A stretch of 64,000 nt of DNA from Sphingomonadales bacterium (GTDB lineage Bacteria; Pseudomonadota; Alphaproteobacteria; Sphingomonadales; Sphingomonadaceae), in assembly GCA_028870315.1 (NCBI GenBank), contig JAGWPW010000056.1:8683-72682 (forward strand), written 5' to 3'. The position numbers and the translations under genes are program-made. This document shows positions 4,464 to 20,763 of this stretch, piece by piece. Every line of letters starts with the position of its first letter. The first letter of the stretch is position 1. Under the pieces are notes generated by a model. It was given only the letters and a program-made list of their open reading frames with translations. It searched no databases and was not told the DNA's origin.

Positions 4464-6449
4464 ATGGCCGAGGATCTCTTCCAGTCCGCGCCGATCGGCG
4501 CCAGCGATGCCTATGACGGCTCGGCGATCGAGGTGCTCGAAGGGCTGGAGCCGGTGCGCCGCCGCCCCGGCATGTATATCGGCGGCATCGACGAGCGCGC
4601 GCTGCACCACCTTGCCGCCGAAGTGCTCGACAATGCCATGGACGAGGCGGTGGCCGGGCATGCGAACCGCATCGAGGTGACGCTGGATGAAGGCAATCGC
4701 CTCACCATCACCGACAACGGCCGCGGCATCCCGATTGACGAGCACCCAAAGTTTCCGGGCAAATCAGCGCTCGAAGTGATCCTGACGACGTTGCATTCGG
4801 GCGGCAAGTTCTCGGGCAAGGCCTATGCGACCAGCGGCGGGCTGCATGGGGTCGGGGTCAGCGTGGTCAATGCGCTGTCCAGCCACACAAGGGTCGAAGT
4901 CGCCCGCAATCGCGAGCTTTATGCGCAGGAATTTGCCCGCGGGCTGCCGATGGGCGATCTGCGCAGGCTTGGCGCGGCGCCGAACCGGCGCGGCACGACG
5001 GTGAGCTTCATCCCCGATGCCGAGATCTTCGGCGCCGAGGCCGCGTTCAAGCCCTTGCGGCTATTCCGCCTCGCGCGCTCGAAGGCCTATCTCTATGCCG
5101 GGGTCGAGATCCGCTGGAAATGCGCGCCCGCGCTCACCGGCGACGAGGTTCCGGCAGACGCGCTGTTCCAGTTCCCTGGCGGGCTTGCCGATCACCTCGC
5201 CGAGCAGATCGGCACGCGCGAATGCGTCACCACCAGCTTCTTTGCCGGCAAGCAGGATTTCCCCGGCGAGGCGCAGGGCCGCGTCGAATGGGCGATCGCC
5301 TGGCCCTTGTGGTCCGACGGCGCCTACAGCTGGTATTGCAACACCATTCCCACGCCGGATGGCGGCACGCATGAGGCGGGGCTGCGCGCCGCCCTCACCC
5401 GCGGCATCCGCGCCTTTGCCGAACTCGTCGGGCAGAAGAAGGCGAAGGACATCATCCCCGAGGACATCGTCACCGGTTGCGAGGCGATGCTTTCGGTGTT
5501 CATCCGCGAGCCACAGTTCCAGAGCCAGACCAAGGATCGCCTCACCAGCCCCGAGGCGGCGCGGCTGGTCGAGAACGCGCTGCGCGACCATTTCGACCAT
5601 TTCCTTACCAGCAACATGGACCGCGGCCGCGCGCTGCTCGGCCATGTCCTCGAACGCATGGACGAGCGCCTGCGCCGCAAGGCCGAGCGCGAGATAAAGC
5701 GCAAGTCGGCAACCAATGCGCGCAAGCTGCGGCTTCCCGGCAAGCTCACCGATTGCAGCGGCGAGGGCGACGGCGACACCGAGCTGTTCATCGTCGAGGG
5801 CGATTCGGCCGGAGGCAGCGCCAAGCAGGCGCGCAACCGCAAGACGCAGGCGATCCTGCCGATCCGCGGCAAGATCCTGAACGTCGCCAGCGCCACCGCC
5901 GACAAGATCCGCGCCAATTCCGAGATCGCCGATCTCGCGCTGGCGCTCGGTTGCGGCATGCGCAAGGACTGCAACCCCGACAACATCCGCTACGACCGCA
6001 TCATCATCATGACCGATGCCGATGTCGATGGCGCGCATATCGCGACGCTGTTGATGACCTTCTTCTTCCAGGAAATGACCGAAGTGGTGCGGCGCGGGCA
6101 CCTTTATCTGGCGCAGCCGCCGCTCTATCGCCTCACCGCGGGCAAGGACAGCGCCTATGCCCGCGACGACGCCCACCGCGCCGAGCTGGAAGCCGGCAGG
6201 TTCAAGGGCAGGAAGGTCGAGGTCAGCCGCTTCAAGGGTCTCGGCGAAATGAACCCGGCGCAATTGCGCGAAACCACCATGGACCCTGGCACCCGCGGGC
6301 TGCTGCGCATAACCCTGCCGCCCGAATATGAAGCGCGGGCACAGGTGAAGGACCTCGTCGAACGGCTGATGGGCCGCAACCCCGAGCACCGCTTCATGTT
6401 CATCCAGAACCGCGCGGGCGACCTCGATCCCGAGATGATCGATGCCTGA
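4464..6449 (+). CDS. parE: DNA topoisomerase IV subunit B
   Basis: LEPVRRRPGMYIG, EVLDNAMDE, GGLHGVG, VEGDSAGGSAKQAR, IIMTDADVDG, RFKGLGEM. It lacks the GyrB insert and has the alphaproteobacterial ParE C-terminus. Confidence 0.92.
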   Translation: MAEDLFQSAPIGASDAYDGSAIEVLEGLEPVRRRPGMYIGGIDERALHHLAAEVLDNAMDEAVAGHANRIEVTLDEGNRLTITDNGRGIPIDEHPKFPGKSALEVILTTLHSGGKFSGKAYATSGGLHGVGVSVVNALSSHTRVEVARNRELYAQEFARGLPMGDLRRLGAAPNRRGTTVSFIPDAEIFGAEAAFKPLRLFRLARSKAYLYAGVEIRWKCAPALTGDEVPADALFQFPGGLADHLAEQIGTRECVTTSFFAGKQDFPGEAQGRVEWAIAWPLWSDGAYSWYCNTIPTPDGGTHEAGLRAALTRGIRAFAELVGQKKAKDIIPEDIVTGCEAMLSVFIREPQFQSQTKDRLTSPEAARLVENALRDHFDHFLTSNMDRGRALLGHVLERMDERLRRKAEREIKRKSATNARKLRLPGKLTDCSGEGDGDTELFIVEGDSAGGSAKQARNRKTQAILPIRGKILNVASATADKIRANSEIADLALALGCGMRKDCNPDNIRYDRIIIMTDADVDGAHIATLLMTFFFQEMTEVVRRGHLYLAQPPLYRLTAGKDSAYARDDAHRAELEAGRFKGRKVEVSRFKGLGEMNPAQLRETTMDPGTRGLLRITLPPEYEARAQVKDLVERLMGRNPEHRFMFIQNRAGDLDPEMIDA

Positions 6450-15782: not shown

Positions 15783-16157
15783 TCAGCGTTCGATCCGCTC
15801 CAGCCCATCGCCCGTCAGGCTTCGGTAGAAGCAGCTGACCGCGCCGGTGTGGCAAGCTGGGCCTTCGGGCACCACGCACAGCAGCAGCGCGTCCTGATCG
15901 CAATCGACGCGGATCTCCTCCACCCGCAGCACATGGCCCGAAGTCTCGCCCTTCATCCACAGCCGCCCGCGCGAGCGCGAATGGAAATGGGCAAGCCCGG
16001 TCTCGCGGGTTTTCGCAAGCGCTTCGGCATCCATCCACGCCAGCATCAGCACCTCGCGCGAGCGCGAATCGACCGCAATCGCCGCGATCAGTCCCTTGTC
16101 GTCGAAACGCGGCAGGAAGTCCCTTCCCTGCTCGCGCGCTGCCCCTGCCTCATTCAT
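15783..16157 (-). CDS. hisI: Phosphoribosyl-AMP cyclohydrolase
   Basis: SRSR..LW.KGETSG, DCDQD, ACHTG..SCF. Confidence 0.95.
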   Translation of the reverse strand: MNEAGAAREQGRDFLPRFDDKGLIAAIAVDSRSREVLMLAWMDAEALAKTRETGLAHFHSRSRGRLWMKGETSGHVLRVEEIRVDCDQDALLLCVVPEGPACHTGAVSCFYRSLTGDGLERIER

Positions 16158-16282
16158 TCATCGCTGCCTGATGGTAAGCTGCCAGTTGTTGCACGATAAC
16201 CACATATGATGACCAAAATCCACCGATCGCGGCAATCAAGCTTTATCTTGGCGCGGATTCGGGCGAAAAAAATTTCACGGTC

Positions 16283-16483
16283 TTGAGGGAGGTCGCATCC
16301 GCGCAAGCCGGATCGGAGACGGGGCCGCTGGCCTCAATCCGGTTTGGCAAAGCCATGGTTCAGGGTAAAAGTCGGCAGCTTCCGGGGCCGATTTCAGGAA
16401 AGGCACAAAGCCTTTCACCAAGCCGCACAGGCGGACAGTTTCGTCACGAAGGCGCCCGGGCTTCACGCCCGGGCGTTCTTTTT
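16283..16483 (+). ncRNA. Putative structured non-coding RNA, family not recognised
   Basis: Intergenic and free of a credible ORF. It has a series of perfect or near-perfect hairpins (ttgagg/cctcaa enclosing atccg/cggat; ggc-aaa-gcc; aagtcggc/gccgattt; gaaaggc/gcctttc; ccgc/gcgg; ttcg/cgaa) and ends in a 10-bp stem plus T-tract. The 5' end is uncertain. Confidence 0.6.
16452..16483 (+). terminator. Rho-independent terminator
   Basis: gcgcccgggc-ttcac-gcccgggcgt followed by tcttttt. Confidence 0.85.
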
Positions 16484-16512
16484 GGTCAAGGCCGCAGCCA
16501 GGCTGAAAGCGC

Positions 16513-17133
16513 TCAACCCGGAAGGCCCGGAGAATCGCTTTCGAGCCACAGCGCATCGACCAGCGAATCGACCAGCGTGAAGTCGGCGGTGTCATGGCCC
16601 GGGTCGAAGCGGCTGAGCGCGAGCTTCCTGGAACGCGGGTCGATCAGCCGGCGGCGCAAGGCGCGCTGGAGGAGGGTCAGCCCGGCGATCGCATCGCCCT
16701 GCGCACCCTGCGGCCGCCGGCCGCGGTTGAGCGACCAATAGGCTTCGAGCTGGCCGACACGCTCGATCACCATCGAATTGTAATCGCGGTGCGGCCCGCG
16801 ATGCAGCGGCAGGCCGCTGCGCAACGCGGCGTCTTCTTCGGCGGGGAGCAGCAGCCCGTTGCTGCGAAAATCCTCAATACCCGGCCAGTCGCCATCGAGC
16901 GCGGCGAACAGCGGTGCGAAACATTTGCGCCGCAGCAGCTCACGCGGCAGGAGATGATGGCGTTGCAATTGCGGGTCGTAGCCGGGATGCTCGGGGCGGT
17001 TCACGGTGCGGAATGGAAGCTCCTTGCGCCGCGCCGCCGCCTTCGCGATCAGCCCGTCATGGAGCTGCGCGACGCGTGCCGGCCGGCGCGGCTTTCGACG
17101 CACGGCAACGGCGGTGGTCAGCGCGGACGGCAT
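16513..17133 (-). CDS. Stand-alone AHH-family HNH/EndoVII nuclease
   Basis: QRHHLLP (AHH-like), FRSNGLLLP, LHRGPHRDYN. Start estimated (ATG 17133). Confidence 0.8.
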   Translation of the reverse strand: MPSALTTAVAVRRKPRRPARVAQLHDGLIAKAAARRKELPFRTVNRPEHPGYDPQLQRHHLLPRELLRRKCFAPLFAALDGDWPGIEDFRSNGLLLPAEEDAALRSGLPLHRGPHRDYNSMVIERVGQLEAYWSLNRGRRPQGAQGDAIAGLTLLQRALRRRLIDPRSRKLALSRFDPGHDTADFTLVDSLVDALWLESDSPGLPG

Positions 17134-17858
17134 ACCATGAGCATCGTCTTGTCCCCCTGCGGGGCGATACGCAAGCGTTCGCCATCGACGCCGCCAATAT
17201 CGATTGCATCGTCTAGGCGGCCAGATTCTACCAATTGGTGAATGAGCCGGGTGGCCAGCCGGGCTTCCTCGCGCGGGCTGTCGCAGGTTCCGGGCGCGAT
17301 GGTCAATTCCTGCCCGGTGAAGAAGGCCAGCCCCTCGCTCTCGATCGCGCCTTGCGCATTGCGCGCCAGCGCGGCGAGCCCGAGCGCCGGAAACGCCCCG
17401 CCGCCAAGCCAGCCGCGGATCGCGGCGATGAAGATCGCCGGCGCCATCGCCGAGCGGGCGGGCTCCCAGCACACCGCCACAATCCCGTCGAGCGCGGCAA
17501 GCGCCGCCGCGATTGCCGCGCCGGCCCGCACCACCGGCAACATGCGTTCACCCCCGGCGAGATGCACCGTCGGGGCGAGCGCGACGGCTTCGCCGACAAG
17601 GCTTGCATCCGCCGCCAAGCCGAAGCGATGCGCGATGCGCGGCGCTGGCGCGGGCTTGCCCGGCGCCAGCCCGGTGAGATCGAAGGTGAGGCCGGTCTGG
17701 ATGACTTCGAGCCAGCCCTGATCGCCGGCTGGCGCGTGGCTGATCGCAAAGCCGGGCAGACCTGCGGCGCGGGCCGCCACCTGCGCGACCGCATCGGCGC
17801 GCGGCCGCGAGCCGGCAGGGAACAGGAACGAAAAACCCGATGGCATTCTTGCATCCAT
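17118..17858 (-). CDS. Hypothetical protein, weakly DUF4261-like at the C-terminus (possible immunity-type protein)
   Basis: The ORF overlaps the AHH gene start by 16 nt. C-terminal SEGLAFFTGQEL...LIHQLV..G resembles the T.GL..F...E pattern of DUF4261. The family call is tentative. Confidence 0.55.
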   Translation of the reverse strand: MDARMPSGFSFLFPAGSRPRADAVAQVAARAAGLPGFAISHAPAGDQGWLEVIQTGLTFDLTGLAPGKPAPAPRIAHRFGLAADASLVGEAVALAPTVHLAGGERMLPVVRAGAAIAAALAALDGIVAVCWEPARSAMAPAIFIAAIRGWLGGGAFPALGLAALARNAQGAIESEGLAFFTGQELTIAPGTCDSPREEARLATRLIHQLVESGRLDDAIDIGGVDGERLRIAPQGDKTMLMVCRPR

Positions 17859-18089
17859 CCTGTCTTCGGGCGTGGAGTTGCGCACCATGTCCTTGTCAGG
17901 TTTCGGCCTTGGCCTGCGCTTTTGCCATGGATTCGTCGAGCCTCGTAGTGGTGATTGCTCCGGAACGGGACGAGATGCGAGCCTGTGCCGGAAGGCGCGA
18001 AAGCGCGCTGCCGGGGTGGGCAATGGCCAAATTTCGCCGTTTTCGGCGGGTCGAAGGCCAGCTAAGGCGATTTTCGCACGGATTCGCCC

Positions 18090-20542: not shown

Positions 20543-20617
20543 GGCCCCTTCGTCTAGCGGTCAGGACGCGGCCCTTTCACGGCTGAAACACGGGTTCGAT
20601 TCCCGTAGGGGTCACCA
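20543..20617 (+). tRNA. tRNA-Glu, anticodon UUC
   Basis: 75-nt cloverleaf with acceptor GGCCCCT/AGGGGTC, loop CTTTCAC (TTC at 20576-20578), GGTTCGATTCC and an encoded CCA. Confidence 0.97.
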
Positions 20618-20688: not shown

Positions 20689-20763
20689 GGCCCCTTCGTC
20701 TAGCGGTCAGGACGCGGCCCTCTCACGGCTGAAACACGGGTTCGATTCCCGTAGGGGTCACCA
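20689..20763 (+). tRNA. tRNA-Glu, anticodon CUC
   Basis: Identical to the upstream tRNA except the wobble base (CTC at 20722-20724). Encoded CCA. Confidence 0.97.

Follow-up and report, generated by a model that had tools for sequence, protein, structure and literature searches.

What lies in the 355-nt gap between the start of hisI and the stop of an AHH-nuclease gene (window coordinates 16157-16513) in the draft genome of a sphingomonad? The window is the 64,000-nt stretch of DNA analysed here, taken from contig JAGWPW010000056.1 of a Sphingomonadales bacterium of the family Sphingomonadaceae. A first-pass annotation, made from the letters alone, had placed in this gap a highly structured, RNA-like element of about 200 nt and had proposed an independent sRNA or structured non-coding RNA (ncRNA). 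Sphingomonads play an important part in the breakdown of aromatic pollutants and lignin, and little of their RNA regulation has been mapped. The window's own genome is 99.6% complete in 170 contigs, a MAG-like draft in which no 16S/23S rRNA signature sequences were found. Here we ask whether the element is an RNA gene, how widely it is kept and on which partner it might act.

The RNA element in the hisI-AHH gap

The + strand of 16270-16485 folds at -93.6 kcal/mol, compared with -78.0 +/- 4.6 for 200 dinucleotide shuffles (z = -3.37; 0 of 200 shuffles as good), and the - strand is weaker in the same test (z = -2.2). This bears out the high degree of structure seen at first, and the terminator that had been read on the + strand was also recovered, as a one-directional intrinsic terminator that runs into CUUUUU (Table 1). 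Downstream of it no + strand gene follows, as the first-pass annotation had noted; the next gene is that of the AHH nuclease, on the - strand and tail-to-tail with the element. Given this orientation and the terminator at its end, a riboswitch or 5' leader is excluded, again as first argued. A small ORF was also rejected, since copies from close relatives differ by a 1-nt indel that disrupts any reading frame. The interval ~16277-16483 (+) is thus predicted to be a stand-alone gene for a structured sRNA of ~205 nt with its own terminator. The 3' end proposed originally has been kept, whereas the 5' end most likely lies near 16277, a few bases upstream of the earlier 16283, judging from where the conserved 5' hairpin and the promoter-like blocks lie in relatives. 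There, the counterpart of the window's blocks is CTTTYC-N16-GNGATT, with the same spacing, ~10 nt upstream of the 5' hairpin P0. We infer that these blocks are promoter-like; their consensus was not matched to a named one, and a sigma-70 scan gave no consensus promoter at the sRNA locus.

Table 1 Features at and around the sRNA, in window coordinates
Feature	Coordinates	Strand	Basis or remark
hisI	15783-16157	-	PRA-CH, PF01502
Promoter-like blocks CTTTAT (16241-16246)-N16-GCGAAA (16263-16268)	16241-16268	+	Conserved spacing
Whole predicted sRNA, ~205 nt, from 5' hairpin to U tail	16277-16483	+	Fold z, R1 match
5' hairpin P0, CGGUCU/AGGUCG, loop UGAGGG (16284-16289)	16278-16295	+	Homologous hairpins of relatives
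Long hairpin, private insert of the window copy	16307-16347	+	MFE and centroid structures
Site A, GCCAUGGUUCAGGG, most conserved unpaired block of the family	16352-16365	+	Comparison of relatives
Hairpin P2, aagtcggc/gccgattt	16369-16394	+	MFE and centroid; position of the family's variable hairpin
Hairpin P3, GAAAGGC-ACAAA-GCCUUUC	16398-16416	+	R1 alignment
Hairpin P4, CCGC-ACAG-GCGG	16423-16434	+	R1 alignment
Block D, GUUUCGUCACGA, directly 5' of the terminator	16438-16449	+	Invariant stretch
Terminator stem-loop (16451-16477) and U tail	16451-16483	+	Terminator scan; upper stem covaries in relatives
AHH-nuclease gene	16513-17133	-	PF14412; stop at 16513
Two tRNA genes	20543-20614 and 20689-20760	+	Sole Rfam gathering-level matches in the window

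The first-pass annotation could not assign the element to a known RNA family, and neither could Rfam 15, which at gathering thresholds gave no match at the sRNA in the window or in the loci of 16 relatives. A permissive scan of 16100-16600 returned only sub-threshold matches, to SorX (21.4 of 46.6 bits) and suhB (15.8 of 41 bits), both at the terminator end. Literature searches found no description of a hisI-adjacent sRNA family. The family is uncatalogued, being absent from Rfam 15.

Parts of the secondary structure had to be revised. Three of the six hairpins drawn initially were retained as the conserved helices P2, P3 and P4, and the rest were redrawn. In place of ttgagg/cctcaa around atccg/cggat, relatives support CGGUCU-UGAGGG-AGGUCG, that is P0, which in many of them has changed stems around the same loop (GCGGUU-UGAGGG-AACCGC; GCAGCU-UUGAGGG-AGGCUGC). 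The small hairpin ggc-aaa-gcc gives way in the minimum-energy fold to the window-specific hairpin 16307-16347, the columns of which are gaps in all six relatives of the first alignment (A1), and ttcg-tca-cgaa falls inside the invariant, apparently unpaired block D. A pairing of tggt with acca that was to close a multiloop found no comparative support.

On the other side of the gap, a near-invariant box, TTGTTGCAnGATAACCACA...CAAAATCCA (16186-16222), lies against the start codon of hisI, both within the genus and beyond it in further genera. The box perhaps serves hisI as its promoter, in which case TGGTTATCG on the - strand would be an extended -10, and/or as a regulator site; ATAACCACA and AAATCCAC resemble DnaA boxes.

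Conservation, covariation and synteny of the family

BLAST against 40 relatives at first matched only the last ~45 nt, the terminator end, and the flanks of these matches held a syntenic element beside hisI with shared blocks. Scanning one genome per species for the exact pattern GTTTCGTCACGANNNCGCCCGG gave at least 120 stretches; further family motifs were present in 117 loci among the matches listed, the named ones being mostly Novosphingobium or unclassified Sphingomonadaceae, and the window's genome is accordingly placed in Novosphingobium. The pattern scan and BLAST gave more than 100 syntenic homologues. An alignment of 90 non-identical homologues (A4), with the window copy left out, was used to build a covariance model (R1), which is therefore also without the window copy.

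In A4, RNAalifold finds 31 pairs, 18 of them with compensatory changes. Standard pairs make up 96.1% of cells as opposed to 87.2% in shuffles (0 of 500 as high), and both sides have changed in 340 cells compared with 99 +/- 11 in shuffles and 13-56 after displacement of the 3' partners by 1-3 columns. Strong covariation is seen in three internal helices and in the terminator; the pairs seen in relatives include GC:46 and AU:29 in the junction stem, CG:33, UA:29 and AU:8 at one pair of P3, CG:49 and UA:36 in P4, and AU:51, GC:28 and GU:10 in the upper terminator stem. G-U pairs are frequent (83 of 90 sequences at one terminator pair) and fit the + strand only. A GGUUC/GAAC pseudoknot at the P3-P4 junction was discarded, the junction varying without compensation in A4 as judged by eye.

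The confinement of the first BLAST matches to the terminator end would suit a region that encodes no functional RNA and is merely conserved intergenic sequence with a shared terminator. This reading is hardly credible in view of the compensatory changes in three internal helices, the universal retention of a single copy and the invariance of unpaired blocks across genera. Covariation well beyond the shuffled and slid controls, conservation of the interval across genus and family in covariance-model scans, and absence from Rfam 15 instead support the independent ncRNA of the first-pass annotation, and we are highly confident that the functional ncRNA family is real.

Canonical members are ordered, from 5' to 3', as P0 with a variable P1, GCCA-N-GGUUCAGGG(A), the variable P2, site B, a junction, block D and the terminator. 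The P0 loop is often G-rich (GCGGUU-UGAGGG-AACCGC or GCAGC-UGGGGGG-CUGC), and P2 varies in both length and sequence. The GGUUCAGGG part of site A (16357-16365 in the window) is invariant or nearly so in the 90 sequences. Site B is the block CAUGAGGGAU, which contains CAUGAGGG, listed also as AUGAGGGAU. A three-way junction, closed by GGRCG/CGYCC, holds P3 with its GGGGG loop and P4 with an often GNRA-like loop, and canonical block D, just before the terminator, reads GUUUCGUCACGAGG. Short forms of the family have no P0 and some species carry extra GAGGG blocks; typically there are 3-5 G-rich blocks per RNA, with a mean of 3.8 compared with 1.9 in shuffles.

R1 scores the window copy (16349-16479, model positions 1-160) at 60.9 bits (E = 3.7e-17), and this is the only full-length match in its own genome; canonical members score 120-149 bits. 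The window copy retains P0 with its UGAGGG loop, site A, P2, P3, P4, block D and the terminator. It has UUUCAGGAAAGG in place of AUGAGGGAU, an ACAAA loop on P3 in place of GGGGG, and deletions at the junction-closing stem GGRCG/CGYCC in the R1 alignment. The low score is due to the lack of site B, junction stem and GGGGG loop. Classed by its motifs, the window copy is a divergent subtype of the family, and comparable divergent copies occur in other genomes of the genus (E = 1e-8 to 1e-20).

Within Novosphingobium the family is a core gene present in one copy, and it occurs widely in Sphingomonadaceae. R1 matches were found in 291 of 301 Novosphingobium genomes and in all 202 of those that are at least 90% complete and at most 5% contaminated, and the ten genomes without a match are all at most 87% complete. 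An order-wide scan gave full-length matches of 30-71 bits in ~15 further genera of the same GTDB family. Outside Sphingomonadaceae, R1 gave only terminator-only or tRNA-plus-terminator false matches among 251 alphaproteobacterial genomes. The blocks that recur in other genera are GGUUCAGGG, AUGAGGGAU, the GGGG loop and UUUCGUCACG; the last, part of block D, is kept even in genera that were found by the model and not by the pattern.

Synteny bears on the possibility that the element is cis-acting or otherwise tied to its locus, as a regulator of hisI or as an RNA partner of the AHH nuclease. The hisI linkage is indeed tight across the family, with hisI divergent upstream of the sRNA, as in the window, in 87 of 97 related loci with enough flank, and in the window the sRNA stands tail-to-tail with the AHH gene. 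However, the sRNA gene points away from hisI and carries a terminator of its own, and the hisI strand is excluded by the many G-U pairs. The AHH gene is beside the sRNA in none of the 97 related loci, so this neighbour is peculiar to the window's genome and the AHH link was dropped; a convergent ComF-like gene (DZR_2 and Pribosyltran domains) lies downstream instead, in 83 of the 97. A locus-linked role, already weakened by these counts, is very unlikely. The AHH gene itself overlaps an upstream 301-aa ORF without a Pfam match (16513-18023, - strand), and this pair stands where the ComF-like gene follows the sRNA in those 83 loci; it therefore looks like a local insertion or rearrangement.

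Complementarity to a SuhB homologue

For a partner search, the window's own genome was scanned for reverse complements of the invariant blocks of the family. That of site A, CCCUGAACC, occurs in the unpaired seed of a terminator-bearing intergenic element outside the window (contig C134, ~4470-4590, - strand; locus L173:1472-1551, - strand). The element matches RF00519 (suhB/MmgR, alphaR8) over its full length with 34.2 bits, which is below the cut-off of 41, and hence annotation pipelines would miss it. It adjoins a gene for N-formylglutamate amidohydrolase (FGase; PF05013, 204 bits), and FGase linkage is a hallmark reported for alphaR8 sRNAs (PMC12559287). The homologue carries CCCUCAUGG in the loop of an additional 5' hairpin and has the seed CCUCCUCCCUGAACCUUGGCC; it is nearly invariant in 26 genomes from six genera, seed and loop being invariant in all 26. 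In Sphingopyxis, SuhB is an Hfq-dependent global regulator that acts on thnR, phbB, TonB receptors and stress tolerance and has no known antagonist; it is described as the only sRNA characterised so far in Sphingopyxis granuli TFA (2025 preprint, 10.64898/2025.12.09.693200).

Elements resembling CTTGAA-N16-17-CCCAAATA or CTATTT precede the SuhB homologues (L176-L199). Other Sphingomonadaceae genera (L215, L216, L218, L219, L221-L227, L229, L230, L232 and L233) also have a second type of alphaR8-like sRNA, with the seed AUCCUCUCCUAAAACUU; upstream of it are the conserved palindrome TTGCA-N6-TGCAA and TTCGCACTTGCACAA, a pattern suggestive of sibling alphaR8 sRNAs that have a regulator site of their own.

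The match to the SuhB homologue extends over more than one site. Site A is perfectly complementary to the SuhB seed over 9 nt everywhere in the family; with its GCCA extension, 14 of 15 positions pair in the family, and 14 without mismatch in species with CCAAGGUUCAGGGA. For the window's GCCAUGGUUCAGGG and the seed CCCUGAACCUUGGC of the same genome, 13 of 14 positions are complementary. Site B, through CAUGAGGG, is complementary to the SuhB 5' loop CCCUCAUG over 8 nt. The window's P0-loop sequence GAGGGAGG is complementary to CCUCCCUC of the alphaR8 seed, and the P0 loop UGAGGGA and P3 loop GGGGGAG give 6-7-nt matches to CCUCCC and CUCCUCC. The order A, B on the family RNA and B', A' on SuhB is co-linear, as a single antiparallel complex requires. 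Of the sequence variants, GGUUCGGGG and GGUUUGGGG keep the SuhB pairing by G-U wobble, but GGUGCAGGG and GAUUCAGGG do not. By our own estimate, the chance of a joint perfect 9-mer and 8-mer match within ~40 nt of conserved unpaired sequence in one particular RNA is of the order of 1e-7, or 1e-4 to 1e-5 once the numbers of motifs and of possible partner RNAs are taken into account.

These matches suggest, tentatively, that the hisI-adjacent sRNA is a decoy (sponge) or reciprocal partner of SuhB/MmgR, a reading that we judge plausible and a little short of probable. The sRNA would act by base-pairing, probably on Hfq, with its exposed G-rich blocks mimicking SuhB target sites. Site A would pair with the SuhB seed, site B with the loop of the SuhB 5' hairpin, and the P0 and P3 loops would add their shorter matches. 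Sequestration of SuhB would then de-repress its regulon, that is carbon use, PHB synthesis, TonB receptors and stress tolerance. In the divergent window copy, site A and the P0 loop would be available for such pairing, but not site B or the GGGGG loop.

Thermodynamic measures did not single out the SuhB site. By duplex energy, the window's site ranks ~3700th genome-wide (65% GC), and SuhB duplex energies are not distinctive relative to shuffled RNAs (mean z of -2.0 for the seed and -1.0 for the loop). In single-sequence partition functions, sites A, B and D are no more open than the rest (0.36, 0.44 and 0.36 vs 0.34). For the window RNA, the predicted unpaired probability is 0.60 at site A, 0.36 at the P0 loop and 0.36 over the whole RNA. 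Covariation between the sRNA and SuhB had to be given up as a line of evidence, because SuhB shows no variation in seed or loop in any of the 26 genomes, which leaves no room for compensatory changes between the two RNAs. Conservation of complementarity is thus the only comparative signal for the putative pairing. The CCCUGAAC part of the alphaR8 seed is also found in Sphingomonadales families without an R1 match, and the alphaR8 sRNAs of other Sphingomonadales families carry CCUCCCUGAAC but no CCCUCAUGG loop.

Block D is the most conserved element of the family and the sponge model leaves it unexplained. It sits where many sRNAs carry a seed or an Hfq module and is kept in other genera, as might be expected of an ordinary trans-acting Hfq-type sRNA that regulates mRNAs through block D and in which the G-rich blocks are structural or secondary. 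Such an sRNA deserves consideration but is unlikely, given that complements of block D occur in the genome at chance frequency (4-5 vs 6 expected). Only one complement lies at a start codon, in an rlmB-like gene; it lacks conservation (present in 13 of 81 genomes, vs 16 matches of a reversed-pattern control) and was rejected as a target. Block D can, moreover, pair with site B (UGAGGGAUC/GUUUCGUCA) and may thereby close the junction domain; this predicted helix is invariant and hence lies outside the covariation evidence. A seed, an Hfq module or the site B partner in a closing helix may each be the role of block D.

The G-rich blocks could also titrate a protein. In a sponge of the CsrB/RsmZ type, AGGGA/GGGGA motifs in loops and linkers would bind an RNA-binding protein, and the 3-6 motifs of this type per RNA, their varying number between species, the terminator and the extensive structure all fit. 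The motif UCAGGGA also fits the RsmA/CsrA consensus A/UCANGGANGU/A. Repeated U(C/G)AGGGA had first suggested a CsrA sponge, and this candidate was abandoned when the genome proved to have no CsrA gene: a six-frame search of the 99.6%-complete genome for CsrA (PF02599) gave 0 matches, with E. coli, B. subtilis and T. maritima controls positive. The conserved blocks GGUUCAGGG and CAUGAGGG also extend well past GGA and match a specific RNA, and no candidate protein is known, so we regard a protein sponge of this type as improbable. Slightly more doubtful still is a sponge for an RNA-binding global regulator other than CsrA, for which the 3-6 U(C/G)AGGGA/GGGGG motifs would be the protein sites and the SuhB match would be secondary or competitive.

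Relation to known sRNAs and significance

If the SuhB decoy reading holds, the closest parallel is CrfA of Caulobacter crescentus (NC_011916.1:3781372-3781500, - strand), which sponges the alphaR8 sRNAs SisA-D via a G/A-rich loop, assisted by Hfq, and thereby reprograms gene expression during carbon starvation (Vogt et al. 2025, PMC12559287). Both are stand-alone genes with an intrinsic terminator and G/A-rich motifs complementary to the anti-Shine-Dalgarno core of alphaR8, and the outcome would be the same, sequestration of a global carbon and stress sRNA, which for the hisI-adjacent sRNA is a prediction from sequence. In contrast to CrfA, with which it was compared by description only, the hisI-adjacent sRNA is longer (150-230 vs 129 nt), has several G-rich sites, carries a second, lineage-specific complementarity to the 5' loop of sphingomonad alphaR8 and is fixed beside hisI.

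Other known sRNAs are less similar. CsrB, RsmY and RsmZ share the repeated GGA-type motifs in loops and linkers, in variable number, the terminator and the stand-alone gene, but the window's genome has no CsrA, the conserved blocks are longer than the GGA motif and Rfam gives no match. The alphaproteobacterial sRNAs suhB/MmgR (alphaR8, RF00519) and SorX (RF02784) likewise have a short single-stranded block ahead of a GC-rich terminator; the matches to them are weak (15.8/41 and 21.4/46.6 bits, respectively) and at the terminator end only. Where suhB/MmgR has a C/U-rich UUUCCUCCCU core, the sRNA carries G-rich blocks, and it looks like a complement of alphaR8, not a member. QrrX of Vibrio and RosA of Bacillus (PMC8216469) are dedicated sponge sRNAs, each with a transcript of its own that base-pairs with a global sRNA at its seed; their sequences and hosts are unrelated, and the function of the hisI-adjacent sRNA is a prediction. 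In kind, then, it belongs to the known bacterial regulatory sRNAs, probably to the sponges, and the family itself was previously uncatalogued.

Whatever the mechanism, A4 and R1 can be used directly to set up a new Rfam family and to annotate genomes. Retention by all complete Novosphingobium genomes, and across the family, makes it likely that this single-copy structured sRNA is a central regulator. Should it antagonise SuhB, it would provide the off-switch so far missing from a global regulon of carbon, PHB, transporter and stress functions, and sponging of alphaR8 sRNAs, so far represented only by CrfA in Caulobacter, would be a recurrent and possibly independently evolved theme in Alphaproteobacteria.
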